Sequence record: PP952733.1
DNA: 64,000 bases
Direction: 5' to 3' (one strand)
Source: Escherichia phage vB_EcoM_H12
Shown: one piece after another, positions 13,366-64,000 of the stretch
Layout of the letters: each line of letters starts with the position of its first letter
Position numbering within the stretch: the stretch's first letter is position 1
Made by a program: the position numbers and the translations under genes
The notes under the pieces: generated by a model
What the model saw: the letters and a program-made list of their open reading frames with translations, nothing else
What the model was told of the DNA's origin: nothing
Databases searched by the model: none

Positions 13366-13376
13366 TTTCTTTACAG

Positions 13377-13398
13377 GGGCTTTGTAGCCCCTTTTAAG
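13377..13398 (+). terminator. hairpin GGGGCT-TTGT-AGCCCC with short T-run (terminator or attenuator)
   Basis: Perfect 6 bp GC-rich stem; follows fibre gene; T-tract only 4 nt. Confidence 0.35.
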
Positions 13399-42591: not shown

Positions 42592-42601
42592 AACTTGACA
42601 A

Positions 42602-42639
42602 GGTGATGTGGGTCTTGATAGGCTTACATCACCTTTTTT
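42602..42639 (+). terminator. probable intrinsic terminator after nrdD
   Basis: GGTGATGT ... ACATCACC stem then TTTTTT. Confidence 0.45.
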
Positions 42640-42745
42640 ATTGGATGTTAGATATGACAGATAGTATTATTGGGTTGTTCATAGGTTCTGTCTTACTAGG
42701 GTTCTTTTTAGGACTCTCTTATTGTGAATTGAGAGATAAGTTAAA

Positions 42746-46302: not shown

Positions 46303-46312
46303 AACTTTATAG

Positions 46313-46334
46313 GGGCTTTTAAGCCCCATTTTGA
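46313..46334 (+). terminator. hairpin between Prs-like and Nampt-like genes (attenuator candidate)
   Basis: GGGGCTT-TTA-AGCCCC then ATTTTG; weak U-tract. Confidence 0.3.
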
Positions 46335-46347
46335 GAGAGATTAAAAG

Positions 46348-48129
46348 ATGACTAAATCACTTTATGCAGTACCAGCAGGTTTAAACGCAGATGCTTACAA
46401 ATCTGGTCACATTTACCAGTATCCTAGTGCAACAGAATACTTGATGTTCAACCTAACACCACGTAGTGACAAATGGTTTAACAGCCCTTTAGCAATTGAC
46501 GGTGTAGTGGCTTTTGGTATTCAACGTTTTGTTAAAGATTACCTGATAGACCACTGGAACGCCACCTTCTTTGAACGTGACAAAAAAGAAGCAATTGATG
46601 AAATCTTAGAAGTCATGAACGGTGTTCTGGGTAAAGATGCTATTGGTCGAGAGCATTGGGAAGCACTCCATGACTTAGGTTATCTACCAGTTGAAGTATA
46701 CGCTGTAGAAGAAGGCACAGTTGTCCCTATGCGTGTACCAATTATTGTCTTCCAGAACACTGTTTCAGGTTTCCATTGGGTAGCGGGGTATCTTGAAGAT
46801 GCTTTCTCTGCTGAGATTTGGAAGGCTTGTACCATTGCAACTATTGCATTGCACTACAAACGTATCTGTAAGAAGTGGGCTGACCTTACTTGTGACAACG
46901 ACTTGCATTTACCTTATCAGTGCCATGACTTTGCTATGCGTGGTATGTCTGGCTTTACTGATGACGCATTTAACGCTGTAGGTCACTTAACCAGCTTTAA
47001 AGGAACTGACAGCTTCCCTGCTGTGTATACAGCTAAACGCATCTATGGACAGTCCTACCCAATCTCTGATATTGGTAGTTCTGTACCAGCCACTGAACAC
47101 TCTGTAATGTGTGCAAACATTGCTTGGGAAGGTGGTAATGAGTTGATTGAAGAAGAAAGACGCTTTAAAGGTGAGTTACAAACCTTCCGTCGTTTCTTAA
47201 CAGAAACTTACCCAACTGGCATTGCAAGTGTTGTTTCAGATACTTATAACTTCTGGAGAACTGTATCAGTTATATTACCAGAACTTCGTAAAGAGATTAT
47301 GGAACGTGATGGCAAACTGGTAATTCGTCCTGACTCTGGAGACCCTGTACATATTGTCACAGGCTATAAAGCAATCCACTTAGAGTGTGCTAAAAAGGCT
47401 TATTACGAACACCTAAGCAAGCTGGAAGCCAGCGACACAATGTTGAATGCTGTTCTGAACATGAAGCTTGAAAACATCAATTATGGTATTGCTGGATGGC
47501 TATTGTCAGAAGGCTACGAAATGGTTGTTGACAGAGAAGACTTTGAAGTTGCTGATACAGTGCTGTTGAAAAATGCTTATATGGTTGGTTCTGCAAACGT
47601 TGTAACACGTCCTGTAGCGGAGATTGATGGAGCTATCAAGACACTGTATAACATCTTTGGAGGAACTATCAACTCTAAAGGTTTTAAAGTACTGGATGAG
47701 CATATCGGACTTATTTATGGTGACTCTATCACGTTGGAACGTGCAAACGAAATACTGAAGCGTTTGTATGAAATGGGTTTTGCAAGCTCTAACGTAGTGT
47801 TTGGTGTAGGTTCTTATACTTACCAGTACATGACTCGTGATACCTTTGCATTTGCTGTCAAAGCAACTCTTGCAAGCATTGGTGGTAAAGAGATTATGCT
47901 TGCAAAAGACCCTAAAACAGATAGCGGTGTTAAGAAGTCTGCTTTTGGTGGTGTAGCACCTATGTGGGATGGTGATAATCTGAAAGCTGTAGATGGCTAT
48001 GGATTCCAGAGCTTTGCAGATGTGCTAGAGCATCCAGCTTGTGCTTTACGTTTAGTCTTTAGCGACTCTGAGCAGTTCGGTTACACAACTCTTGGTGATA
48101 TTCGAAATAATATTGACAAGCAGCTTTAA
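46348..48129 (+). CDS. nadV: nicotinamide phosphoribosyltransferase family protein (Nampt-like; candidate Namat)
   Basis: Matches Nampt along its length as recalled (DAYKSGH, HDFAMRG, FKGTDS, SVPATEHS, IRPDSGDP). Confidence 0.9.
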   Translation: MTKSLYAVPAGLNADAYKSGHIYQYPSATEYLMFNLTPRSDKWFNSPLAIDGVVAFGIQRFVKDYLIDHWNATFFERDKKEAIDEILEVMNGVLGKDAIGREHWEALHDLGYLPVEVYAVEEGTVVPMRVPIIVFQNTVSGFHWVAGYLEDAFSAEIWKACTIATIALHYKRICKKWADLTCDNDLHLPYQCHDFAMRGMSGFTDDAFNAVGHLTSFKGTDSFPAVYTAKRIYGQSYPISDIGSSVPATEHSVMCANIAWEGGNELIEEERRFKGELQTFRRFLTETYPTGIASVVSDTYNFWRTVSVILPELRKEIMERDGKLVIRPDSGDPVHIVTGYKAIHLECAKKAYYEHLSKLEASDTMLNAVLNMKLENINYGIAGWLLSEGYEMVVDREDFEVADTVLLKNAYMVGSANVVTRPVAEIDGAIKTLYNIFGGTINSKGFKVLDEHIGLIYGDSITLERANEILKRLYEMGFASSNVVFGVGSYTYQYMTRDTFAFAVKATLASIGGKEIMLAKDPKTDSGVKKSAFGGVAPMWDGDNLKAVDGYGFQSFADVLEHPACALRLVFSDSEQFGYTTLGDIRNNIDKQL

Positions 48130-48144
48130 AAGTATATGATAAGA

Positions 48145-48166
48145 GGCTCCTACGGGAGCCTTTTTA
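48145..48166 (+). terminator. intrinsic terminator
   Basis: GGCTCC-TACG-GGAGCC then TTTTT. Confidence 0.65.
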
Positions 48167-49054: not shown

Positions 49055-51421
49055 ATGCGCATGGTAAATGACCACGCAGAAGTGATTAAGAGTTCAACTT
49101 CTTTGGAGACGTCTCAAGCACAGATTACAATGACACCTGAAATGTTCAGCCTTTTGAGTTCTGGTGTATATACCTTTAAAGAAAGGGCAGTTATCCGTGA
49201 ACTGTCATGTAACGCAGTAGATGCTCAGAAAGAAGCTGGAAAAGAGAACATCCCGTTCCATGTGCATTTACCTACTCGTTTTGAGCCTTACTTTGAAGTT
49301 CGTGATTTTGGAACTGGATTGACTCATGATAAAGTTATGAGTTTGTATCTAAATTACGGGGCTTCTACGAAGAATGACTCTAATGATTACATTGGTGCAA
49401 TGGGTATCGGTTCAAAATCTCCATTTGCAATCGCTCAGTCATTCACAGTATCTAGCTATGTTGATGGTGTTGTTAATAAGTACTCTGTTTACCTTGAGAA
49501 TGGTATCCCTCAAGTAACTAAGCTGACCACCAACCCAACAAAAGAGCCTAATGGTTTAGCTGTACGTGTAGCAGTTGCTGACCATCGTATTTCAAAGTTC
49601 TTTGAAGAAGCTGGTCATGTATACTCATACTTTGCTGTAAAACCAGAAAGTAACATCGAGTATGACGATGTATTAGCAGATATGAATGTCATTGCCCGTG
49701 AAGAAGGTGTTTATGATGCCATGATTCACAAACAAAGCTGGCGTTCTAGTGGTAACAGGACAGAGTTTAATGTAGTGATGGGTAACATTGCCTACCCTGT
49801 TAATATGGAAGCATTACTTGGTGATGATTTCTTCAAAGTATTGCCAGAATTTTTCCGTAGGAGCGTAGACCTTGTAAACATCTACATGCCTATTGGTTCA
49901 GTTGCTATTGCAGCTTCTCGTGAAGCATTGCAGATGAATGACACGACAAAAAATGTTATCATCGAAGCTACTAAAAAGATAACTGAAGCAATTACAAAGG
50001 ATGTTATCAAGAAAGTTAATAGCCAACCTACACTCATGGATGCTGCACAGGCTTATGCTGAGTTGCGTTTGAACTCACGAGAGATGTTTAATGCTGTGTG
50101 TCCAAAGCTAGAGTGGGGAGGCGTTAAGCTTGATTCTCTGGAAGAAGAATTACTAAACATTCGTCGTGGAATTATCTACGCAGAAGATGGCTCAGTCATC
50201 TATGAACGTGATGGTAAAGGTAATATTAAAGTTGATAGGAATGGAAACAACATCCCTAAAGTAGATTATCTTTATAATCCTGTTGCTTATGTTAAGTTCA
50301 ACTCTTTAGAGAGTAAGATTCGTGCAACATCGCTTTCCTACACTCAAGAGGCAAGTATGTTCAATATCTTTGGCGCAATGCGTAAAAGCCAAATTGAACA
50401 GTTTTTGTTTGTTATCAATGACCGTCGCAATAAAAACGGTACTGAGAAAACTGTAGGACGCAACCAGATTCTGCGTGGTGCATGTCGAGACTATGCCAGC
50501 GAGTCAAGTCTGTTTCACAGATACAATGGTATTGTCTTTGTATTCTCTACTGAGAAAGAGCTAGATGATTTAATCAATCTGCACAAACTTGATAAAAGCT
50601 TGTTAAAGATTGTGAAGATGTCTGATAAGGAACATCATTATCAGCGTAAAGAAGCTGTGAGAGGTGTTGTAAAACTCTGGAAAGCTGTTCCAGCAGAAGG
50701 TGTAGCTTCATACAAAGAGGTGTCAGAAGACTTTGATACAATTGAAGAGCCTCAGCTTTACATCAAGGCAGTCGGTGACACAGTTGATGGTGAATGTTTT
50801 TGCTCATCTCCAGAAGATGTAGCTAAGTCAGTTGCTAATGTTACAGGTAAGACAATCTATGTTTTCCGAAAAGCAAATTGGAAAAAGATACCAGAAGACT
50901 GGATTGAAGTAGATGAGAAGCTCTTGAACGACAGCTTAACTGATGTTCACTGGATTAATCACAACAGGTATATGACACGTATCTATATGAATGGTGTCCT
51001 TGACCTTACAAGCAGTTGGATTATTGCCAGAAACTTTACGTTCAATAACAGGAAGATTTCTCGTGGTTATTGCTATTCACGAGACACAAATAAAACTATC
51101 TTCTTAGAAGGCAATGAAGATGCTGTTGAGGCAATGTTTGGTAAAATCCAATACGTTGCTGCACCGTTTGCATACACTTACACCGTTAGTCGGTTGCAAA
51201 CTTTGAAAGAATGCCTTGACAACGATACAAAGCTGTACAAGAAAATTAAGAAAGCTGGTGACCGTATGGTTATTAAGGTGACAAACTATCTTTTAAAAAG
51301 AAAACAAGAAAACTTCTTGCTTTCTCATTTAGATTGGAATAAAGTGTCACCCATCGAAGTGAGTAAGTTCTTAGGCTTTGATGTGAAGTGTGTTCCAGAA
51401 GGGACTACAATTTACGATTAA
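49055..51421 (+). CDS. rIIA: rIIA-like protein (GHKL-type ATPase domain)
   Basis: 788 aa; N-terminal RELSCNAVDAQ ... VRDFGTGL ... GIGSKSPF matches the T4 rIIA N-terminus as recalled; followed by rIIB-sized gene. Confidence 0.75.
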   Translation: MRMVNDHAEVIKSSTSLETSQAQITMTPEMFSLLSSGVYTFKERAVIRELSCNAVDAQKEAGKENIPFHVHLPTRFEPYFEVRDFGTGLTHDKVMSLYLNYGASTKNDSNDYIGAMGIGSKSPFAIAQSFTVSSYVDGVVNKYSVYLENGIPQVTKLTTNPTKEPNGLAVRVAVADHRISKFFEEAGHVYSYFAVKPESNIEYDDVLADMNVIAREEGVYDAMIHKQSWRSSGNRTEFNVVMGNIAYPVNMEALLGDDFFKVLPEFFRRSVDLVNIYMPIGSVAIAASREALQMNDTTKNVIIEATKKITEAITKDVIKKVNSQPTLMDAAQAYAELRLNSREMFNAVCPKLEWGGVKLDSLEEELLNIRRGIIYAEDGSVIYERDGKGNIKVDRNGNNIPKVDYLYNPVAYVKFNSLESKIRATSLSYTQEASMFNIFGAMRKSQIEQFLFVINDRRNKNGTEKTVGRNQILRGACRDYASESSLFHRYNGIVFVFSTEKELDDLINLHKLDKSLLKIVKMSDKEHHYQRKEAVRGVVKLWKAVPAEGVASYKEVSEDFDTIEEPQLYIKAVGDTVDGECFCSSPEDVAKSVANVTGKTIYVFRKANWKKIPEDWIEVDEKLLNDSLTDVHWINHNRYMTRIYMNGVLDLTSSWIIARNFTFNNRKISRGYCYSRDTNKTIFLEGNEDAVEAMFGKIQYVAAPFAYTYTVSRLQTLKECLDNDTKLYKKIKKAGDRMVIKVTNYLLKRKQENFLLSHLDWNKVSPIEVSKFLGFDVKCVPEGTTIYD

Positions 51422-51426
51422 AGTGT

Positions 51427-51456
51427 TTGACAAGGGGCTTTGAAGCCCCTTAGAAT
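51427..51456 (+). promoter_or_regulatory. sigma70-like promoter with hairpin in the spacer
   Basis: TTGACA, 17-18 nt spacer that is itself GGGGCTTTGAAGCCCC, then TAGAAT. Confidence 0.5.
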
Positions 51457-51501
51457 AACCTCACAAAAATGATTTATTAACTAACAAGAGAGAGTAATAA
51501 G

Positions 51502-52611
51502 ATGACTACTAAAACTAAAGCACAGATTGACGCAGAAATCTACAAACTGGTTAAAGAAGGTAAGCTGACTAAAACAGCTATTGCACAGAAGTTCAATACT
51601 TCAACCCGTTCAGTCGGTCGTGCTGTAGAGCGTCATGAAGCAACCTTAAAAGGTAAGAAAAAGGTAGCTTCTAAACCAGTTAAGAAGACTCTAAAGCAAG
51701 TTGCTAAGTCAGTTAAAAAGAAAGCTGGCAAACCAGTTGAAAAGGTTGTTAAAGAGGCTGTACAGAAAGCTCCAGTAAATAAACTGCATGAAGCTATGCA
51801 GAAAGATGACAAGATTGAGTATATGATTACTGGTGACTCTGTAATTATGACTTACGGTTCAGAGTCTGAAATTGTTGAGTCTACTCATCCGAACTATCAA
51901 GAAATTGTAGTTCATGTTGTGAAAGGTGAGTTCAAGAAAGCATTTGAACTGATGAACATTCGTAAGTCTATCGAAAACTTCACTCAGGGTGCTATCACAA
52001 TCAAAGGTGACAAGTTATTCTACGGTGCTGTTGAGATGCGTTCTACTCTGGTTGACCGTATTCTTCACATGATGAAGACTGGTGATAAAGGCTTTGAACG
52101 ACTTGTAATGTTCTTCGAAAAACTGATGGAAAACCCATCTAAAGACTCTGTAGAACAGCTTTGGGGATTTGTATCTCACCTTGATGTTGAAATTGATGAA
52201 GAAGGCTACATCATTGGTTGGAAGAAAGTCTCTACTCGTGAAGGCAAGTTGGTTGACTCCCACACCTACAAAGTACCTAATGATTTGGGTAACATTGTAG
52301 AAATGCCACGTTGGATGGTTGATAACAACCGTAACGTAACTTGCTCTCAGGGTCTTCATGTTGGTGCTTGGGATTATGTTCGTTGCTTCTCAGGTGATAC
52401 AATCCTGAAGGTTCGTGTCCATCCACGAGATGTTGTATCTGTTCCGACTGATTACAACGATATGAAGATGCGTTCATCCCGTTATGAAGTTGCAGCAATC
52501 GTTGATAATCAACGTAAAGTGTTGAAAGCATGGGACGGTAAGACTGAAGCTTTGCATGTCATCGTTGGCACTGCTGGTGAACTAATCTCCCAACGTAAAC
52601 GTGAAATCTAA
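51502..52611 (+). CDS. rIIB: rIIB-like protein
   Basis: 369 aa; Lys-rich N-terminal region; directly downstream of rIIA-like gene. Confidence 0.5.
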   Translation: MTTKTKAQIDAEIYKLVKEGKLTKTAIAQKFNTSTRSVGRAVERHEATLKGKKKVASKPVKKTLKQVAKSVKKKAGKPVEKVVKEAVQKAPVNKLHEAMQKDDKIEYMITGDSVIMTYGSESEIVESTHPNYQEIVVHVVKGEFKKAFELMNIRKSIENFTQGAITIKGDKLFYGAVEMRSTLVDRILHMMKTGDKGFERLVMFFEKLMENPSKDSVEQLWGFVSHLDVEIDEEGYIIGWKKVSTREGKLVDSHTYKVPNDLGNIVEMPRWMVDNNRNVTCSQGLHVGAWDYVRCFSGDTILKVRVHPRDVVSVPTDYNDMKMRSSRYEVAAIVDNQRKVLKAWDGKTEALHVIVGTAGELISQRKREI

Positions 52612-52627
52612 TAAGTAATTTCTTAAA

Positions 52628-52650
52628 AGGCTGCTTCGGCGGCCTTTTTT
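52628..52650 (+). terminator. intrinsic terminator after rIIB
   Basis: GGCTGC-TTCG-GCGGCC then TTTTTT. Confidence 0.6.
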
Positions 52651-52711
52651 ATTTGTATTTTGTGCAGAGTGCTGTATAATTGTGGTCACGATAAACTAAA
52701 CAGGAGAACCA

Positions 52712-56260: not shown

Positions 56261-57046
56261 ATGGGTATTGTAAAAATCATCAATGGGGATATCTTCTCAG
56301 CATTTGATAAAGGTAAGTTTGATGTTATTGGTCACGGTTGCAACTGTATGAATTTAATGGGTGCAGGTATCGCTGACAAGATTTCTAAACTTTATCCAAA
56401 AGCATATGAGACCGATACAGAAGTTTATCTGTATGCAGGTGGAATAGGCCACAAACCTTGTGAAAATTTACTAGGGAATTTCTCTGTAGCACGTTTAGAA
56501 CAAGGCCGTATAGCTAACCTTTACACTCAGCTTAAGACTGGTAAAGATGCCCGATACAGTGCTTTAGAGTCATCTTTGAAACAACTTAACAGATACTGTG
56601 AAGTCAATCAGTTGAAGAAAGTTGGGTTACCTATGATTGGTGCAGGTATCGGTGGACTAGACCCTCAAGCCGTCGCAGTTATCATTAATCAGGTGATGAA
56701 GAGTGTAGATGTGTATCTGTATGTCTACGAAGGCGAGATGTACCACAAGTTACGCTCAGGTTGGAAGAACTACTGTGAACCAGAATACTTTGCAGGTGTA
56801 GTAATGTTCACAGATGATACAGTTACCCTCTTCAGACGAAGAAAAGGTAAGATACATCAAAGTAACCCTCCGGTTGAGAAGATGTCTCTAAGTAACGCTC
56901 TAGTTACCCACCTGTCGAAGAGCAATCACAGAATTGCAGTAACATTTGGCAGTGATGCAGACGCTTACATCTATGCAAGAACTGATGAGGATATTGATAC
57001 AGTTTTCTCTTCACCGGAAGTAACCTTCTTAGACGCAAAGAACTAA
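56261..57046 (+). CDS. macro-domain protein (ADP-ribose binding / processing)
   Basis: N-terminal GDI ... DVIGHGCNCMNLMGAGIADKI and later VGLPMIGAGIGGLDPQAV align with macro-domain motifs (compare E. coli YmdB, as recalled). Confidence 0.7.
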   Translation: MGIVKIINGDIFSAFDKGKFDVIGHGCNCMNLMGAGIADKISKLYPKAYETDTEVYLYAGGIGHKPCENLLGNFSVARLEQGRIANLYTQLKTGKDARYSALESSLKQLNRYCEVNQLKKVGLPMIGAGIGGLDPQAVAVIINQVMKSVDVYLYVYEGEMYHKLRSGWKNYCEPEYFAGVVMFTDDTVTLFRRRKGKIHQSNPPVEKMSLSNALVTHLSKSNHRIAVTFGSDADAYIYARTDEDIDTVFSSPEVTFLDAKN

Positions 57047-57109
57047 GAAACTCTGTAGAATATTCACAATAGACTAAGCCTTTCTTATCTGGTAAATTTT
57101 TCAGGTAAG

Positions 57110-57302
57110 GAGGGCTTTTTCATTTTAGGATTGTGCAGGTAGAGTTCTGTATAGAAATCTGTAGAGAAAATTTTGAACTCCAAAGAGAAAATTCATTTTC
57201 AAACTGTGCAGGTAATCTCCAAAGAGCTTTTTCATTTTCAAAACGTGCAGACCCCGCTCAGGTCGGGCAAGAAAAATCATTTTAGAATTGTGCAGGTAGG
57301 TG
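57110..57302. repeat. degenerate direct repeats (4 copies) in ~500 bp non-coding region
   Basis: Four copies of (A/T)TCATTTT(A/C)(A/G)(A/G)A(A/C/T)(T/C)GTGCAG(G/A)(T/C), two preceded by CTCCAAAGAG. Confidence 0.55.
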
Positions 57303-57473
57303 GGTACAGGTGGGGATGTCGCCATTTCTCACAAGGCTACCACATCTGGAAATAAAAGTCAACATAAAAATTTGTAGAGGATTGAAAAATAATTCTTGAT
57401 TGTAGTTCTGTTTTGTGGTAGTCGCGTGCGCCCGTTTCATTACAGTTTTTGCAAAAATATTTTTAAAAATTTT

Positions 57474-57502
57474 CTTGACTCTTTGAACGTGGTTATCTAA
57501 TA
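57474..57502 (+). promoter_or_regulatory. sigma70-like promoter, first unit of small-gene array
   Basis: TTGACT-N17-TAATAT. Confidence 0.55.
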
Positions 57503-57555
57503 TTTGCATCAGACGGGGCGACAAGCTCAACAACCTTAAACTAGGAGATTCAAAA

Positions 57556-57936
57556 ATGGCATATCGTGCACCTAAATTCATCAACAAAGACAACTTTCGC
57601 AACACACTGGAGAAGTCACTTGATGAAAATTTTAAAGGTAACATTATCGTTGTTCACGCATTCAATTTTAAGTATGATGTAAACGGGAATAGAATCAACC
57701 ATTACACGGCAACCATGTTAGATGGTACGCTATCAAGTGAAAAAGCTGTACTGAATGCACTTGCTGGACGCGGTAAAAACCTGATAAAATGTGATAAGAG
57801 ACGTTATCAGGGTGGCGCATATGGTTATGATGATGCTGTTTACCATCTTGAAAATATGGGCTATTCAGTAGAGAAAGCTGGAGCGTCTCAAATAATCGGT
57901 AGTGATGGTTATGTGACAATTTTCAAAATTAACTGA
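57556..57936 (+). CDS. small-gene array: hypothetical protein
   Basis: 126 aa; conserved leader CTAGGAGATTCAAAAATG. Confidence 0.45.
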   Translation: MAYRAPKFINKDNFRNTLEKSLDENFKGNIIVVHAFNFKYDVNGNRINHYTATMLDGTLSSEKAVLNALAGRGKNLIKCDKRRYQGGAYGYDDAVYHLENMGYSVEKAGASQIIGSDGYVTIFKIN

Positions 57937-57940
57937 TAAA

Positions 57941-58024
57941 GTACTTTACAAGGGGCTTATAGTTCGATAAAGTAAGCCCCAGATAAAGAGCTTTATCACT
58001 CAATCCTAAATTGGAGATTCTAAG
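57941..58024 (+). repeat. type-1 intergenic element (hairpin + conserved box + leader)
   Basis: ACTTTACA, hairpin GGGGCTTA/TAAGCCCC (57952-57980), AGATAAAGAGCTTTATCAC box. Confidence 0.55.
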
Positions 58025-58318
58025 ATGGCTATTATCAAAAACGTTGTAATTACTGCAAAAACTCGTGATGATGCTCGCGTTATGGCTAAAAAGTTATGCG
58101 GGAAAGTGATTGACAACGGAAAACAATCTGCTGTAAGATGGGGCGTGAAGACTGATAAACAGTTGAAGCTAAAAAATTCACCAATAAACCTTTTTACATG
58201 TGTAAACACTATCGGGAAGACAAATGTATACACGAAAAAGGCATATATCAGACGCGTAGCCATGACATCACCTATTCGCACAATGAGAAGTCATGCAAAG
58301 CTGAAAATTAATCGTTAA
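58025..58318 (+). CDS. small-gene array: basic hypothetical protein
   Basis: 97 aa; conserved leader. Confidence 0.45.
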   Translation: MAIIKNVVITAKTRDDARVMAKKLCGKVIDNGKQSAVRWGVKTDKQLKLKNSPINLFTCVNTIGKTNVYTKKAYIRRVAMTSPIRTMRSHAKLKINR

Positions 58319-58320
58319 AG

Positions 58321-58404
58321 TACTTTACAGGGGCTTGAAAGCTGATATCTTAAACCCCAGATAAAGAGCTTTACCACTCAATCCTTAAACTAGGAGATTC
58401 AAAA
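58321..58404 (+). repeat. type-1 intergenic element
   Basis: ACTTTACA, imperfect hairpin with AAGCTGATA loop, AGATAAAGAGCTTTACCAC box. Confidence 0.5.
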
Positions 58405-58917
58405 ATGAAAACTGTAGACGCTACCTTTGAAGTTGTAAAAGAAAAATTCACCATTATTTATGAAGCTGTTAATTGCTTTGAAGCAAGCCATAACCTTGAT
58501 AATTGGGAGTTTACAGATGACCATCAAGGCGGCGTGACTATTAAAAACCCCAACTGTCAGCGTAATGATTTTAAATATGCAATCCCTTTACATTACAGCC
58601 TTAAACAGCTTTCAAGTGACTATGCAAAACAAGGCCGGGAAAATCCATCAAAAGAGGCTTACATAAGCTTACAGAAAGAACTAGAAAGAGATTTAGAGGC
58701 TTCAGAATACAACCTTGCCGCGAAAGTTGTCGATGCAAATGGTCAAACAATTTTAGATAGTTTTTATATTGGTTACGCTTTCGATTGGTGCTATAGTGAC
58801 GGCGATGATTTAGAGGATAGACTAAAAGAAGAGGTGAGCAATTCAGACGCAGAATCTGAAGTATTAGAACGCTTGGAAGCATTAAAAGATTCAGTGATGA
58901 ATATCTTTAAGAACTAA
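58405..58917 (+). CDS. small-gene array: acidic hypothetical protein
   Basis: 170 aa; conserved leader. Confidence 0.45.
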   Translation: MKTVDATFEVVKEKFTIIYEAVNCFEASHNLDNWEFTDDHQGGVTIKNPNCQRNDFKYAIPLHYSLKQLSSDYAKQGRENPSKEAYISLQKELERDLEASEYNLAAKVVDANGQTILDSFYIGYAFDWCYSDGDDLEDRLKEEVSNSDAESEVLERLEALKDSVMNIFKN

Positions 58918-58920
58918 ATA

Positions 58921-59004
58921 GATTTCTTTACACGGGGCTATCAAGCTGATAAGATAGCCCCAGATAAAGAGATTTATCAACTATCCTAAACTGGAGATTC
59001 AAAA
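58921..59004 (+). repeat. type-1 intergenic element
   Basis: CTTTACA, hairpin GGGGCTATC/GATAGCCCC with AAGCTGATA loop, AGATAAAGAG box. Confidence 0.55.
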
Positions 59005-59301
59005 ATGAAATTATCAAATAAAGTCCGTGAAAATCTAAGCAAGTTACTCAACAAAATTGATTTTATCGAGACATCAAGGAATAGTCATGATGTTATGGAA
59101 TGGTTACACGGAAAAATCAAAGGCCGTCGTGTAGTGATTTGCTTATGGAATAGTTGCAGGGAATATAAAAAACCTGTATTACAAGTCAATATCTATGATG
59201 ATACTTTTAAAAGCCCTGTAAAGTCTAAAAGTGATTTATTAGAATCCTATGAGATAACTGTAAATGGCAAAGTATCACGTAAAGAGGAAACACCATGTTA
59301 A
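59005..59301 (+). CDS. small-gene array: hypothetical protein
   Basis: 98 aa; conserved leader. Confidence 0.45.
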   Translation: MKLSNKVRENLSKLLNKIDFIETSRNSHDVMEWLHGKIKGRRVVICLWNSCREYKKPVLQVNIYDDTFKSPVKSKSDLLESYEITVNGKVSRKEETPC

Positions 59302-59627
59302 TGACTGGTATCACTGCAATCATTGCCATTTTCGCGCTATATAAGGCATATAAAGCCTATAATCTAGCAAATAAGGCAATCACACAGCAGGTTAGCAATA
59401 GCCTTGTAGAAAGCTTTCTAGGGCGTCTCAGTGATGAGCAAATAAAGCGGTTAGAAATGAGCTTCAGATTCAAAGCGAAAACCTATCAGATAAGTGACAT
59501 CTTCAAGGATGATTTTCAGCTTGTCGATGATTATAACTCTCTGATAAATGCTTTAAATATCAGTGATTTAAAAGATTATCATGCTGTAATAGTTCAAGAA
59601 TTGAGCAAACGAAAAAATTCCTCTTGA
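59295..59627 (+). CDS. small-gene array: membrane-anchored hypothetical protein
   Basis: 110 aa; N-terminal TM helix; coupled to upstream gene. Confidence 0.4.
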   Translation: MLMTGITAIIAIFALYKAYKAYNLANKAITQQVSNSLVESFLGRLSDEQIKRLEMSFRFKAKTYQISDIFKDDFQLVDDYNSLINALNISDLKDYHAVIVQELSKRKNSS

Positions 59628-59652
59628 TTTTGGTTTTTAAAACAAGTAAATT
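59624..59652 (+). promoter_or_regulatory. type-2 promoter
   Basis: TTGATT-N17-TAAATT; then 5' hairpin GGGAGG-GATAA-CCTCCC (59663-59679). Confidence 0.55.
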
Positions 59653-59714
59653 ACTAATCAACGGGAGGGATAACCTCCCTACTAAGTAAAGTCCTTAAAC
59701 TAGGAGATTCAAAA

Positions 59715-59987
59715 ATGTACACTACTAACAACGGTCGCACTTTAAACGTAACCCTGCGCCACTATGTGAACGGTGTAATGCACTTCGAGGATTTACAAGC
59801 TGAACAACATATACTAGATTGGCAACTTGCAGGACTCCAAAAAACTGCTACCGGATACGGGAAAAAGATTCCAACTAGCTGGAAAGTATACTACGAAGGA
59901 CGTTTGCGCAGAATTTATCAAGATGTATGCAGCAATAGCGCATCAAGTTACATCATGGTAAAGGGTAAAAAATTACACTTAGCATAA
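59715..59987 (+). CDS. small-gene array: hypothetical protein
   Basis: 90 aa; conserved leader. Confidence 0.45.
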   Translation: MYTTNNGRTLNVTLRHYVNGVMHFEDLQAEQHILDWQLAGLQKTATGYGKKIPTSWKVYYEGRLRRIYQDVCSNSASSYIMVKGKKLHLA

Positions 59988-60072
59988 AGTACTTTACAAG
60001 GGGCTTATAGTTCGATAAAGTAAGCCCCAGATAAAGAGCTTTATCACTCAATCCTAAATTGGAGATTCTAAA
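59988..60072 (+). repeat. type-1 intergenic element (near-identical to 57941-58024)
   Basis: Same ACTTTACA-hairpin-AGATAAAGAG sequence. Confidence 0.55.
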
Positions 60073-60477
60073 ATGGCTATTAATAATCGTGAGTTATCAA
60101 TCTTAAAAGCACGTTTGACCGTTAACCGGATTAATGTTATTACGTCATCAGCACCGGATGAGACATTGCACAACATTATCGGGAAGATTCAAAGTGTTAT
60201 CTTAGACGTTGAAAACGTAAAAAATTCATTAGCTGACGTTGCAGCAGGTATCACGCTAGACGGTGCACAATATGAAATGGCTGACATGTTAGGCAAATCT
60301 AAGGTAATGAATAAAGAGCTTGATTTAAAAATGTTCCGCTTTGCCGTGAAAGTGTGGCTATCTGTCGAGTATGACGCAAATTTTGCAATCGCTGACTTTT
60401 TCGCAACATGGTTGCAACGTAATTTAACAAATCATGATTTCCGTGATATCTGCGACGTAATTTACGCAGAACTTTAA
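60073..60477 (+). CDS. small-gene array: hypothetical protein
   Basis: 134 aa; conserved leader. Confidence 0.45.
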   Translation: MAINNRELSILKARLTVNRINVITSSAPDETLHNIIGKIQSVILDVENVKNSLADVAAGITLDGAQYEMADMLGKSKVMNKELDLKMFRFAVKVWLSVEYDANFAIADFFATWLQRNLTNHDFRDICDVIYAEL

Positions 60478-60487
60478 AAATTTCTCT

Positions 60488-60516
60488 TGATTTTGGTTTT
60501 TAAAACAAGTAAATTA
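60488..60516 (+). promoter_or_regulatory. type-2 promoter
   Basis: TTGATT-N17-TAAATT plus GGGAGG/CCTCCC 5' hairpin; near-identical to 59611-59714. Confidence 0.55.
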
Positions 60517-60577
60517 CTAATCAACGGGAGGGATAACCTCCCTACTAAGTAAAGTCCTTAAACTAGGAGATTCAAAA

Positions 60578-60778
60578 ATGGCTATTATTAACGGCTTAAA
60601 CATTGAAACTACTCACATCAAAGATATCAAAGTTGGTGATATAGTCCTTTTTCACGGCGTAGAAAAAACTGTTACTTCAAAGGATATCAAAGAGGACTCT
60701 TTCATGGGCCGGTCTCTCTTCGGTGATTCTTATTGCTTAGGTTACCGCGCAGTTTTAAAAGTTGTCAAAAATAACTGA
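60578..60778 (+). CDS. small-gene array: hypothetical protein
   Basis: 66 aa; conserved leader. Confidence 0.4.
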   Translation: MAIINGLNIETTHIKDIKVGDIVLFHGVEKTVTSKDIKEDSFMGRSLFGDSYCLGYRAVLKVVKNN

Positions 60779-60780
60779 TA

Positions 60781-60866
60781 AAGTACTTTACAGGGGGCTT
60801 AAAAGCTGATATCTTAAGCCCCAGATAAAGAGCTTTACCACATTAATCCTAAACTGGAGATTCAAA
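60781..60866 (+). repeat. type-1 intergenic element
   Basis: ACTTTACA, hairpin GGGGCTTAA/TTAAGCCCC with AAGCTGATA loop, AGATAAAGAG box. Confidence 0.55.
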
Positions 60867-61409
60867 ATGAAATGCTTTCACGGTACTACTCAAGAAAACT
60901 TCGTCAACCTGATTAATAACGGTGATAAACCATCAGGCGCATGGAATTGTTCTGATATGGATGGGAATTTCTACGTTTATCCAGAAAATAAAATCTATGT
61001 CGACGATGAGGAAGAAATAATCTCTGAAGGCATTCAACAAGCTTTAGGCAATGCCACTATAACGGCAGCTTTTCAGATGAAAACTCAAAACATTGTTATC
61101 TTGGAACTTGATATCCCAGAGGATGAGTTGAATGATGATTATTCTTGTGATAATATGTCGAGCGTGGCAAGTTTTACAGAGTATTTCGATATAAGCTGGA
61201 TTAAAAAGGTTTATATCACTGAATTTAATGCTATGTTTTCACCTTTTTGTCTTCCTTCACTGGATAACCCGAACTTAAACTATCTTGATGAGTCTCTGGA
61301 ACTTCTCGCTAAAAGTGTTCAACAATCAGACAGTATTCAGGTTTTTTGTGACATCATGGATACACTAACAGGAAACATCATAGAAAGTGATTTGAAGAGC
61401 TTTTTATAA
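60867..61409 (+). CDS. small-gene array: acidic hypothetical protein
   Basis: 180 aa; conserved leader variant. Confidence 0.45.
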   Translation: MKCFHGTTQENFVNLINNGDKPSGAWNCSDMDGNFYVYPENKIYVDDEEEIISEGIQQALGNATITAAFQMKTQNIVILELDIPEDELNDDYSCDNMSSVASFTEYFDISWIKKVYITEFNAMFSPFCLPSLDNPNLNYLDESLELLAKSVQQSDSIQVFCDIMDTLTGNIIESDLKSFL

Positions 61410-61441
61410 AAACCTATGCAATCACCCTATAAACACTGATT

Positions 61442-61462
61442 AGCCCCTCACAGGGGCTTTTA
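61442..61462 (+). terminator. probable intrinsic terminator
   Basis: AGCCCC-TCACA-GGGGCT then TTTT. Confidence 0.45.
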
Positions 61463-61475
61463 GGAGGCTTTAATC

Positions 61476-61709
61476 ATGCTTACAACCATTTACCTCATCC
61501 TTTCTATTTGTAATGGTCATTCATGCGATTTTAAAGGGCTTGAGGAGTTTACAGGGAGTAAAGAAAATGCTATTCAAGTTTGCCAGATAGCAAGACAAGA
61601 CTACCCCGCCAGTGATGATATACAATGCTACTTCAAAACAGAAGATAATGACGGCGTTTATTTTGATAGTGTCGATGGTCAATATGAAATTATCATTGAA
61701 AAAGACTAG
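61476..61709 (+). CDS. small-gene array: hypothetical protein (possible signal peptide)
   Basis: 77 aa; hydrophobic N-terminus; AGGAGG RBS. Confidence 0.4.
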   Translation: MLTTIYLILSICNGHSCDFKGLEEFTGSKENAIQVCQIARQDYPASDDIQCYFKTEDNDGVYFDSVDGQYEIIIEKD

Positions 61710-61735
61710 ACAAGCCTGATAAAAGTCTGTAAATT
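61707..61735 (+). promoter_or_regulatory. type-2 promoter
   Basis: TAGACA-N17-TAAATT then GGGGAGGGAATGACCTTCCCC hairpin. Confidence 0.5.
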
Positions 61736-61800
61736 ACTAATCAACGGGGAGGGAATGACCTTCCCCACTAAATAAAGTCCTTAAACTAGGAGATTCAAAA

Positions 61801-62142
61801 ATGGCTTATGTAACCGTAATTACCGACAAGGCTGGCTCATCTTGGTCAACTCAAGTAAGCGATAAGATGACACCTATGCAGTGCCTAAAATACTTTGAGC
61901 AGTGGAATAAAGGCGAGGATGTCAGCCCCTTTCAAGTCATGCAGATTATCCATACAGATAACGAAGGGAATAAAACTGTTTTGAATAGTGAGTACTACGC
62001 AACCCGATTTGAAACGAGATGTAAAGCAATGAAGCTCTTGCGTGAGTCTGGCTATTCTCATATTGCCTCACTAATCTGGGATGACCTTCTAAAAAATCAG
62101 CGTATCAGCTATGTAAAACCTGAAAAAATATTCATCAGTTAA
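61801..62142 (+). CDS. small-gene array: hypothetical protein
   Basis: 113 aa; conserved leader. Confidence 0.45.
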   Translation: MAYVTVITDKAGSSWSTQVSDKMTPMQCLKYFEQWNKGEDVSPFQVMQIIHTDNEGNKTVLNSEYYATRFETRCKAMKLLRESGYSHIASLIWDDLLKNQRISYVKPEKIFIS

Positions 62143-62270
62143 TCAATAACTTACAAAAAACTTTTAAAAAAGTGTTGACAATACCCCTTGACATTGGTAA
62201 CTTTGTTCGAGGGGGTTTATCTAAAAGGATTCACTTAAAAGATTCTTTATAGATAAACTTAAAAAATTGC

Positions 62271-62299
62271 TTGCAAAGACAAATCAAATCAAGTAAATT
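62271..62299 (+). promoter_or_regulatory. type-2 promoter
   Basis: TTGCAA-N17-TAAATT then GGGGGA-TGACC-TCCCCC hairpin. Confidence 0.55.
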
Positions 62300-62360
62300 A
62301 CTAATCAACGGGGGATGACCTCCCCCACTAAATAAAGTCCTTAAACTAGGAGATTCTAAA

Positions 62361-62891
62361 ATGAACAAGTTTAAAGCTATCAATTACATCCGCTCAAATA
62401 GTGTTATGTCAAAACCTGTTAAAGATACCTACGAATTTCGTTGCAATGGTGTACACTTTGCAACAATCACCAAATCAGAAAACGGAGCTTATTACATTCA
62501 TCGCCGTAATGTTGCAACCGTTGTTGTCTCTCACTTTATGCAAGCTGTCGCGGAACTTCTCCCGATGTTTTTAGGGCTTTACTTGGATGAGTGTAAAAAC
62601 GTTCACAATCACGTTAAAAACCTTTTAAATAGCTATAAAATGGCTTATGAACGTTCTATCAAGTCATTGAACAAGTTTTACAACGCACCTGAAAATACTG
62701 TATCAATAGCTTATGACGTAAGCGGTGAAATGGTAAACTTATCCAATGTGGAAGAAATCAAGCTGCATGATTTACGCCCTAGCGGTGACTCTAAGACTCT
62801 CGGTGAAGGTTTAACGTTCAATATCAAGAACTTAGAGAAAACTTTAAAAGATATTGAAAAAGATATTGACGAGACAACCAAAAATCTGTAA
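62361..62891 (+). CDS. small-gene array: hypothetical protein
   Basis: 176 aa; conserved leader. Confidence 0.45.
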   Translation: MNKFKAINYIRSNSVMSKPVKDTYEFRCNGVHFATITKSENGAYYIHRRNVATVVVSHFMQAVAELLPMFLGLYLDECKNVHNHVKNLLNSYKMAYERSIKSLNKFYNAPENTVSIAYDVSGEMVNLSNVEEIKLHDLRPSGDSKTLGEGLTFNIKNLEKTLKDIEKDIDETTKNL

Positions 62892-62894
62892 ATT
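62866..62894 (+). promoter_or_regulatory. type-2 promoter (inside the 3' end of the upstream gene)
   Basis: TTGACG-N17-TAAATT then GGGGAGGGAATGACCTTCCC hairpin. Confidence 0.5.
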
Positions 62895-62956
62895 GTCAAT
62901 CAACGGGGAGGGAATGACCTTCCCACTAAGTAAAGTCCTAAACTGGAGTTATCAAG

Positions 62957-63220
62957 ATGGAAAACGTAGAATTAACCGCACTATTGCAGATTGCAACTGA
63001 TAAAGAGGATGTAGCACTGTTCCACCGCATTGAAAGCGATTTGTTCAATGGTGAAATCATCAAAGAGTCTTACGAAGTTGTCGGATTCAAAGACGGTAAA
63101 ACGTTCGGATTCTTTGACCTTGATAAAGGCAACGCGGTTACAAAATATGATGTTTTATCTTGTGAGATTCTTACAAGATACAACGAAAAAAGGCTTGCAA
63201 CATACGCCAACATGCAGTAA
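62957..63220 (+). CDS. small-gene array: hypothetical protein
   Basis: 87 aa; leader variant. Confidence 0.4.
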   Translation: MENVELTALLQIATDKEDVALFHRIESDLFNGEIIKESYEVVGFKDGKTFGFFDLDKGNAVTKYDVLSCEILTRYNEKRLATYANMQ

Positions 63221-63223
63221 ATT
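63195..63223 (+). promoter_or_regulatory. type-2 promoter (inside the 3' end of the upstream gene)
   Basis: TTGCAA-N17-TAAATT then GGGGGA-TGACC-TCCCCC hairpin. Confidence 0.55.
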
Positions 63224-63284
63224 ACTAATCAACGGGGGATGACCTCCCCCACTAAATAAAGTCCTTAAACTAGGAGATTCAAAA

Positions 63285-63533
63285 ATGGCAACTATCCGCG
63301 CAATTGTAAATTCTTATGGCTGCTACACTCTGGACGTTAAATTTGATATTGGTGGAACTGATGAATGCTTTTCATTAGTGAAGACAGTTATCAAGCAAGT
63401 TATCCCAGACTATAACCCTACTGATGACTTCTGGAAAGATGCCGTAAAAGAGGCGTTGAACGATGAATATCATTACCATTATTGGGGTGACTTGATTGTA
63501 TCCCTGTACTACAGCAAACAAGGTTACAACTAA
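63285..63533 (+). CDS. small-gene array: hypothetical protein
   Basis: 82 aa; conserved leader. Confidence 0.45.
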   Translation: MATIRAIVNSYGCYTLDVKFDIGGTDECFSLVKTVIKQVIPDYNPTDDFWKDAVKEALNDEYHYHYWGDLIVSLYYSKQGYN

Positions 63534-63571
63534 TCGACGCAACGGGGCTAAATAGCCCCAGATACCTTTAC

Positions 63572-63595
63572 AGCCCCTTAAATGGGGCTTTTTTA
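63572..63595 (+). terminator. intrinsic terminator closing the small-gene array
   Basis: AGCCCC-TTAAAT-GGGGCT then TTTTTT; extra hairpin GGGGCTAAATAGCCCC just upstream. Confidence 0.55.
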
Positions 63596-63599
63596 CGTC

Positions 63600-64000
63600 T
63601 ATGTAATAGACCCTACACAATCCTTTCCAGAATCTATCTCGTACCTTAAAAGCAATAACTCTATAGCTTACTCTATAGCCCCTTATCAAATCAACTTAAA
63701 TATAAGCCAATAACCCCAGAAAGGGGATGGCCCATTTAAACGCTCTATAAAGCTCTATAACAGCCTTATCAACCTAACTTAATGGATTGCATTAACTCAC
63801 CCTTAAAAGCTCTTTACAGGGCTTTATAGAGGCTTAAAAGAATCTTATAAGGGTGTAAGCTTTATCATCTCGTTAGTTATCTTGTGAATGGTTAAACAAC
63901 CCCTTGATAGTCACTAAAAAGTATGTTATAGGGGCTATAAAGTCACTTTGAAGTAGCTTAAAAGTTACGTAAAAGGTGTTTAAAAGTTACGTAAATGCTA
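63600..64000. repeat. non-coding region with short direct repeats (continues beyond window)
   Basis: Repeated CTCTATA(A)AGC units; TTAAAAGTTACGTAAA twice at 63958-64000; no ORF over 60 aa. Confidence 0.4.

Follow-up and report, generated by a model that had tools for sequence, protein, structure and literature searches.

How might one transcript be stopped and the next one started within the gap between two adjacent phage genes? The question is raised by positions 51427 to 51456 of a 64,000-nucleotide stretch of Escherichia phage vB_EcoM_H12 (PP952733.1; the whole stretch is called the window below), where TTGACA, a palindrome and TAGAAT follow one another between the genes rIIA and rIIB. The initial annotation described a promoter whose spacer is a perfect hairpin, and proposed that it could drive rIIB while acting as a terminator-like structure for read-through from rIIA. 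Our analysis suggested that the element is a composite cassette of the promoter-early stem-loop (PeSL) type, filling the space between rIIA and rIIB in a Felix O1-like phage (estimated probability, about 0.65). PeSLs were defined in the T4-like phages RB49 and phi1 as intergenic cassettes of about 100 bp, with the stem-loop most commonly located in the spacer that separates the -35 box from the -10 box, in the order stop codon, sigma70 promoter, G-run/C-run stem-loop, Shine-Dalgarno sequence and ATG (Arbiol et al. 2010, PMC2839356). The element at 51427-51456 has the same layout as the PeSLs of RB49/phi1, PST/T4 and nt-1/KVP40.

A predicted promoter and a stem-loop in the rIIA-rIIB gap

The promoter scan returned a promoter at 51427 with 11 of 12 consensus matches and an 18-nt spacer, in the context ...GATTAAAGTGT TTGACA AGGGGCTTTGAAGCCCCT TAGAAT AACCTCAC... 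(Table 1). Both hexamers and the palindrome were found where the initial annotation had placed them, but the spacer of 17 nt that it gave is in fact 18 nt long: its string, AGGGGCTTTGAAGCCCC, drops the final T, and 6 + 17 + 6 makes 29, which is inconsistent with its own span of 30 nt. The GGGGCT/AGCCCC arms that it described are real, although the repeat is longer, with a 9+2+9 structure in which the 9-nt arms AAGGGGCTT and AAGCCCCTT surround a central TG. The palindrome takes in the last base of the -35 hexamer and the first base of the -10 hexamer. In the folded form, an 8-bp stem (AAGGGGCU/AGCCCCUU) closes a 4-nt loop, UUGA (51440-51443); the energy predicted for the RNA is -13.3 kcal/mol (centroid) and that for either DNA strand -8.2/-8.3 kcal/mol. 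The element occupies the gap between the two genes, from the TAA at 51419-51421 through the promoter and the Shine-Dalgarno sequence to the ATG at 51502.

A promoter-like match may also pair by chance with an unrelated, functionless hairpin. Promoter-like matches are frequent in a genome as A/T-rich as this one (38 found in 10 kb, where 27 were expected). However, none of 200 random windows generated with a first-order Markov model reproduced the element: an 8-bp stem within the spacer of a promoter-like site (at least 10 of 12 consensus positions) was seen in 0 of 200, and a stem of at least 7 bp in 1%. TTGACA-N16-18-TAGAAT occurred 3 times in the window, each time on the + strand (31794, 32133 and 51427), against 0.08 expected, and a search for GGGGCT-N4-AGCCCC that allowed up to 2 mismatches found 7 sites, 4 of which fitted exactly, where 0.41 were expected. 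The element is also part of a recurrent family and has been retained, with diverged flanks, in about 50 genomes from two genera. The conservation data made a chance origin of the element very unlikely, and the absence of any function scarcely credible.

The proposal of a promoter for rIIB was supported by the sequence together with the comparison. The -35 hexamer matches the consensus at 6/6 positions and the -10 hexamer at 5/6, both are conserved in two genera, and promoters of this type are found elsewhere in the window. In phage AYO145A (NC_028825), the same 30 nt are annotated as 'promoter, similar to TTGACA(N15-18)TATAAT with 1 bp mismatch'; the element is therefore already public as a predicted promoter. 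We infer that 51427-51456 has promoter activity and serves rIIB.

Conservation of the element in related phages

To compare the element among relatives, we assembled about 50 rIIA-rIIB junctions of Felixounavirus and Mooglevirus from GenBank phages, IMG/VR and metagenomes. The junction was syntenic in every relative examined, and one metagenome scan gave 12 further loci, all with an identical layout. Every Felixounavirus sequence read TTGACA-A-GGGGCT-NNNN-AGCCCC-T-TAGAAT. In Mooglevirus, the A after TTGACA is absent, which leaves a 17-nt spacer, and the loop is GAAA; the -35 hexamer has stayed intact across the genera despite this 1-nt spacer indel. TTGACA was constant in Felixounavirus, while three Mooglevirus-like loci deviated from it (TTGACG or TTGACT), and TAAAAT and TAGGAT were the only -10 variants among the relatives. 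The GGGG/CCCC core was invariant in the approximately 50 relatives, and the loop varied (TTGA, TCAA, GAAA or GCAA). The bases 5' of the -35 hexamer and past the -10 hexamer varied freely, and the AGAGAG core of the rIIB Shine-Dalgarno sequence was kept in all relatives.

More distant Ounavirinae had a hairpin of -13 to -14 kcal/mol at the same site with an unrelated stem. In Hafnia phage Zyzzx, the stem is AAGTGGTC/GGCCACTT and the promoter reads TTGACA-17-TCTAAT, with the -10 hexamer inside the loop. The stem is GGGCTG/CAGCCC in Erwinia phage phiEa21-4 and TGGTGGC/GCCACCA in Pectobacterium phage Wc4; in these two phages the hairpin is without flanking hexamers, and promoter-like sites are located upstream, in or at the end of rIIA. 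Since different stems at the same site give equally stable hairpins, the hairpin is under selection as a structure and the promoter as two hexamers, with the relative placement of the two shifting between genera.

The rIIB leaders of these three phages have a CTTAAAC motif shortly upstream of the Shine-Dalgarno sequence (phiEa21-4, locus L009, 556-585; Wc4, locus L041, 303-340; Zyzzx, locus L008, 555-585). The motif was also present in the window's type A and type B cassettes described below (CCTTAAACTAGGAG) and in RB49 PeSLs (CTTAAACGGAG), and may be a shared leader element.

Proposed promoter and terminator functions of the element

As a PeSL-type cassette, the element would be used twice. 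Host sigma70 RNA polymerase would read TTGACA/TAGAAT across the 18-bp spacer on double-stranded DNA and start near 51463, and the rIIB mRNA made in this way would carry a 5' untranslated region (UTR) of about 39 nt and be a monocistronic transcript of about 1.2 kb ending at the strong terminator at 52625-52654. In RNA derived from rIIA, the spacer would fold into a G/C-rich stem-loop beginning 10 nt past the stop codon, which would weaken or stop read-through or, as a minimum, cap and stabilise the 3' end of rIIA. Transcripts that begin at the nested promoter would be free of the stem-loop and unaffected by it because their start lies downstream of it, and the expression of rIIB would be set by its own promoter and not by upstream transcription. 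End-point reverse transcription-PCR of Felix O1, which is weak evidence, placed the peak of rIIB at 10 min and that of rIIA at 25 min.

The terminator-like role for rIIA read-through is plausible only by analogy with the RB49/phi1 PeSLs. LacZ reporters showed both promoter and terminator activity of PeSLs, with PeSL206/205 tested as a promoter in the RB49 work and the stem-loop of PeSL211/210 reported to lower lacZ expression to roughly the same extent as rrnB T1 does (PMC2839356). A canonical intrinsic terminator was rejected for the element here, as the U-tract is absent; without a U-tract, termination by the hairpin would therefore need to work as reported for RB49 PeSL211/210 and not by the textbook rule.

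Several observations weigh against the PeSL reading. The tail after the hairpin is UUAGAAU when counted from the 6-bp core and AGAAUAAC when counted from the 8-bp stem, with no U-tract in it. The terminator scan did not call the hairpin at 51432-51451, and its d'Aubenton-Carafa-type discriminant was -30, against +5 to +35 for the canonical terminators of the window; the type B hairpins scored -37 to -48. The 18-bp spacer is suboptimal for a promoter. Among the relatives, the fifth stem pair is broken and uncompensated in three loci (L018, L039 and L052), and no stem covariation was found within Felixounavirus and Mooglevirus, where the stem is otherwise invariant. The arrangement in phiEa21-4 and Wc4 would place the hairpin in the rIIB 5' UTR, and the conserved role may perhaps not be termination. 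All described PeSLs are from T4-like phages, whereas the window belongs to the Ounavirinae, a difference that concerns taxonomic scope and not the mechanism. The Felix O1 genome paper gives neither the promoter here nor a terminator t1 after rIIA, and a literature search for 5'/3' end mapping, transcriptome, transcription start site or transcription termination site data on Felix O1-like phages found none.

On the other hand, the promoter may be real and the stem-loop non-terminating, an element of RNA stability or processing only, whose position in the spacer reflects genome compaction. The stem-loop would then be a 3' exonuclease barrier for the rIIA mRNA or, where the promoter is upstream, a 5' stem-loop of the rIIB mRNA. 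The missing U-tract and the negative terminator score fit such a role, as does the retention of the hairpin in phiEa21-4 and Wc4, where rIIB must be transcribed through it from the upstream promoter-like sites. The six type A cassettes further along the window put a similar hairpin just past the predicted start, in the position of a 5' stabiliser. However, the stem-loop of RB49 PeSL211/210, reported to act on its reporter like a terminator, is likewise followed by a -10 box and not a U-run, and -35-like hexamers stand beside 5' arms far more often than by chance, which genome compaction by itself explains poorly. Stability of the RNA as the sole role is a serious rival, if a fairly unlikely one; the cruciform, operator and chance readings are much less likely.

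Loop inversion and the cruciform alternative

The loop was the variable part of the hairpin. Among 36 Felixounavirus sequences, it was TTGA in 18 and TCAA in 18, which are exact reverse complements (centre TG versus CA), and no intermediate loop state was found. On a neighbor-joining tree of the 1.8-kb flanks, the loop states needed 10 changes, against 10.6 with shuffled labels, and the closest pair, the window and Escherichia phage vB_EcoM_D4, differed in loop state. A second G/C hairpin, at 46312, had the loop TTTA (46318-46321) in the window and TAAA in two related loci (L050 and L051), and RB49 PeSL paralogs had GGT versus ACC. No flip was found in 23 sequences of the UUCG loop of the rIIB terminator, which has an imperfect stem. 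An origin of the TG/CA centre by CpG decay was rejected, as the 36 sequences held no CG or TA intermediates.

This pattern looks like the signature of recurrent hairpin-mediated inversion, by template switching or by recombination within the loop, and shows that the loop sequence is not under selection. Small hairpin-loop inversions ('flip-flop') are known from organelle genomes and from template-switch mutagenesis. The organelle flip-flop shares with the loops here two reverse-complement states, no intermediates and no phylogenetic signal; we found no description of it for phage promoter/terminator cassettes.

The loop inversion also bears on a DNA-level reading, in which negative supercoiling would extrude the palindrome as a cruciform, collapse the spacing between the -35 and -10 hexamers and switch the promoter off, as a natural case of the Horwitz-Loeb type. 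In its general form, the inverted repeats, in the spacer here and around the -10 hexamer in five paralogs, would be natural DNA switches that turn early promoters off or on by hairpin or cruciform extrusion, driven by the supercoiling of phage DNA that has just been injected or is being transcribed, with the loop flips as their footprint. The palindrome does run exactly from the last -35 base to the first -10 base, and a loop centre that flips between TG and CA without phylogenetic signal points to intrastrand pairing in vivo at some stage. However, the inversion is explained equally well by template switching on single-stranded DNA in replication, relatives hold the hairpin elsewhere relative to the promoter or without a promoter, and the paralogous cassettes have the -10 hexamer in the loop, which would need a different DNA-level logic. 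Arms of 8-9 bp with G/C-rich stems are also short for cruciform extrusion. A cruciform switch is improbable, both at this locus and as a general device of the paralogs. The suggestion of the initial annotation that a cruciform could modulate promoter strength found no support here, the loop inversion being the one hint of intrastrand pairing in vivo.

Related hairpins and cassettes in the window

Perfect G/C-rich hairpins with short loops were found mostly between genes: 17 of 21 were in the non-coding 7.6% of the window, the majority of them 5-14 nt past a stop codon. When longer loops were allowed, TT[GT]ACA abutted the 5' arm in 8 of 40 G/C-rich hairpins, all on the + strand, against 0.5 expected (P ~3e-8), with four of the eight being paralogous copies.

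At least 11 related cassettes were found between small + strand open reading frames (ORFs) at 57.9-63.3 kb (Table 1). Five of them, called type B (57945, 58323, 58927, 59993 and 60787), have TTTACA, a spacer of 16-17 nt and TAnnnT in the loop, with a TGn extended -10 in 3/5. Their order is AAAGTAC-TTTACA-(A/G/C)-GGGGCT.. arm, loop with TAnnnT, ..AGCCCC arm, AGATAAAGAGCTTTATC and CCTAAAYTGGAGATTCWAAAATG, and their arms vary compensatorily (GGGGCTTA/TAAGCCCC, GGGGCTATC/GATAGCCCC and GGGGCTTAA/TTAAGCCCC). The rIIB element AAAGTGTTTGACAAGGGGCTT and the type B sequence AAAGTACTTTACAAGGGGCTT share 18 of 21 nt. Within type B, the AAAGTACTTT segment is a palindrome in its own right, and GATAAAG occurs three times per cassette. 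PeSLs are described as marking boundaries of recombination or indels between close relatives (Arbiol et al. 2010); when the window was compared with AYO145A, one of two breakpoints (58305) was at a type B cassette.

The six type A cassettes have TTGnnn-17-TAAATT followed by ACTAATCAAC, a hairpin right after the predicted start, and ACTAARTAAAGTCCTTAAACTAGGAGATTCAAAAATG. Their hairpin stems are GGGAGG/CCTCCC, GGGGGA/TCCCCC or GGGGAGGG/CCTTCCCC, and the predicted start would place the hairpin at the 5' end of the transcript.

The GGGGCT/AGCCCC arms were reused in hairpins after stop codons at 13370-13392, 46306-46327, 63544-63589 and 61442-61458, two of which have TTTACA or TTTATA in front and no -10 box at promoter distance. 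We rejected the idea that a -10 box would come within promoter distance once the hairpin at 13370 or 63567 was removed. A GGGGCT..AGCCCC hairpin at 63544-63589 precedes AGCCCC..GGGGCT+T5, and alternative pairings are possible.

A palindrome with recurring arms may also be an operator, at which a dimeric DNA-binding protein of the phage or the host would block access to the promoter. A perfect palindrome of 18-20 bp in a promoter spacer and the recurrence of GGGGCT/AGCCCC arms in the genome would suit such a site. However, the other exact copies (13376, 46312 and 63544) come after stop codons, with no -10 box spaced as in a promoter, the arms are 4 nt apart here and 10-13 nt apart in the paralogous cassettes, the reversed order AGCCCC..GGGGCT is also found, and the stem sequences are wholly different between genera while the pairing is kept. 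An operator was rejected on the variable arm spacing of the paralogs, the copies away from promoters and the different stems, and we consider it highly improbable. A hairpin promoter for a virion RNA polymerase, as in phage N4, was set aside on the sole ground that, according to the Felix O1 genome paper, that phage has no RNA polymerase gene of its own.

Other close arrangements of promoters and terminators were observed in the window. At 48113-48164, TTGACA-16-TATGAT ends 3 nt before the terminator AGGCTCC-TACG-GGAGCCT+T4, and the start would therefore fall within the 5' arm of the terminator; in relatives, TAnnAT-like hexamers regularly precede AGGCTCC terminators. At 42595-42640, after a 714-amino-acid ORF, TTGACA abuts a terminator with a 10-bp stem (AAGGTGATGT..ACATCACCTT+T4), and a weak -10 sequence, TAGGCT, is located within the 16-nt terminator loop at 18-nt spacing. 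The rIIB terminator is followed by an extended -10 promoter (GCTGTATAAT; 52625-52690), which the annotation of AYO145A shows as overlapping with the terminator.

A non-coding stretch of about 500 nt (57047-57555) follows a terminator at about 57080-57120 and has no Rfam match. CATTTT(N6-7)TGTGCAG occurs there in four copies (57111-57295), with a similar sequence, ATTTTGTGCAG, past the rIIB terminator at 52660. At its end is a strong promoter, TTGACT-17-TAATAT, with an A/T-rich upstream tract (about 57476-57504). The Rfam search of 56900-64000 gave no match at the gathering score, and that of 51300-51600 at E values up to 10 gave two sub-threshold chance matches and nothing else.

Flanking genes and genome identity

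The region shares 98.8% identity with vB_EcoM_D4 and 93-98% with about 240 Felixounavirus genomes, and the sequence assigns the window to Felixounavirus (Felix O1-like), subfamily Ounavirinae. The upstream gene is annotated as RIIA lysis inhibitor in phages that are 97-99% identical, the rIIA and rIIB labels agree with the GenBank annotation of near-identical phages, and rIIB has tblastn homology to T4-type rIIB. Since a Pfam search of the rIIA and rIIB proteins gave no match to either, their identities rest on the GenBank annotation and tblastn. The terminator after rIIB has a discriminant score of +34.5, is annotated in AYO145A and appears as t2 in the Felix O1 genome paper.

Table 1. Features of the rIIA-rIIB junction and related cassettes in the window
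Feature	Position	Strand	Remarks
A/T-rich stretch with the rIIA stop codon and conserved AAAGTGT just 5' of -35	51405-51426	+	16/22 bases A/T (73%)
-35 hexamer TTGACA	51427-51432	+	6/6 consensus
Inverted repeat / stem-loop	51432-51451	+	arms 51432-51440 and 51443-51451; centre TG 51441-51442
Promoter spacer AGGGGCTTTGAAGCCCCT	51433-51450	+	18 nt
-10 hexamer TAGAAT	51451-51456	+	5/6 consensus, including A at position 2 and T at position 6
Predicted transcription start, about 51463 (A, 7 nt past -10)	51462-51465	+	predicted from standard sigma70 geometry
Shine-Dalgarno-like GAGAGAG	51488-51494	+	7 nt ahead of the rIIB ATG at 51502
rIIA coding sequence (upstream gene)	49055-51421	+	ORF list; stop TAA 51419-51421
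rIIB coding sequence (downstream gene)	51502-52611	+	ORF list; annotation of relatives; tblastn
Canonical intrinsic terminator after rIIB, AAAAGGCTGC-TTCG-GCGGCCTTTT + TTATTT	52625-52654	+	terminator scan
Type B cassettes, intergenic	57936-58034, 58304-58391, 58920-59010, 59984-60082, 60767-60876
Type A cassettes	59638-59717, 60501-60580, 61721-61803, 62285-62363, 62880-62962, 63209-63287

Comparison with PeSL cassettes and other known systems

If the PeSL reading is true, Felix O1-like phages, which are widely used in Salmonella and E. coli typing and biocontrol, organise early transcription by the compact cassettes described in T4-like phages, in which an old transcript is ended and a new one begun. 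PeSL-type cassettes would thereby be extended past the T4-like phages and would offer a compact natural promoter/insulator part. How transcription passes the many terminators of Felix O1 is stated as unknown in the genome paper, and internal promoters nested with stem-loops would be a testable answer. For phage biology in general, a known design would be confirmed, without surprise.

To compare the element with the PeSLs directly, we read the RB49 intergenic sequences of PeSLs 211/210, 206/205, 210/209, 191/190 and 187/186. PeSL211/210 is TAA..AAAAAGTTG-TTGACA-GGGGATCACGTATCCCC-TATACT...GGAGAATCAAAAATG and PeSL206/205 is TTGACA-GGGGATCGGTGATCCCC-TATAAT, and in both the U-run after the stem is absent. 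As in the element here, the upstream stop codon is in an A/T-rich stretch, the promoter boxes are near-consensus and a G-run/C-run stem stands between them, which is the commonest PeSL subclass. Both genomes have repeated cassettes among small ORFs, and the flanking motifs AAAGT..TTGACA and GGAGAWTCAAAAATG are common to both phages. AAAGT(N1-2)TTKACA had 7 copies on the + strand of the window and one on its - strand, whereas in RB49 (100 kb) all 15 copies were on the gene strand and none on the other; GGAGAWTCWA was found on the gene strand 11 times in the window and 22 times in RB49, with 0 matches on the opposite strand. By its sequence, the element is an already described architecture in a new phage group. 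Because AAAGT..TTGACA, the G-run/C-run stem and GGAGAWTCAAAAATG are shared, PeSL cassettes could move between unrelated families, such as the T4-like Krischvirus and the Felix O1-like Ounavirinae.

Comeau et al. (2014, PMC4122927) described PeSLs from further T4-like phages, among them TTTACW-N17-TAYWAT variants, and no link of PeSLs to Felix O1-like phages was found in the literature searched. The element differs from the described cassettes in its spacer, which is 18 nt instead of 17, and in its location between conserved genes instead of beside a variable ORFan, a minority of PeSLs being located in conserved modules (PMC2839356).

Other systems resemble the element in part. Cruciform repression was documented for a synthetic promoter (Horwitz and Loeb 1988, as cited in PMC6060812) that likewise has an inverted repeat in its -35/-10 spacer; it was an engineered promoter of demonstrated extrusion, whereas the arms here are short. 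Intrinsic terminators, including the canonical ones of the window, share the G/C-rich stem-loop about 10 nt past a stop codon but differ in the U-tract, as only one of the 8 nt that follow the 8-bp stem here is a T. In phage T4, rIIB has its own promoters, PrIIB1 and PrIIB2 (PMC2988021), besides read-through from rIIA, as proposed for the present locus; the T4 promoters are MotA/AsiA-dependent middle promoters, whereas the candidate promoter between rIIA and rIIB here is of the plain -35/-10 kind.

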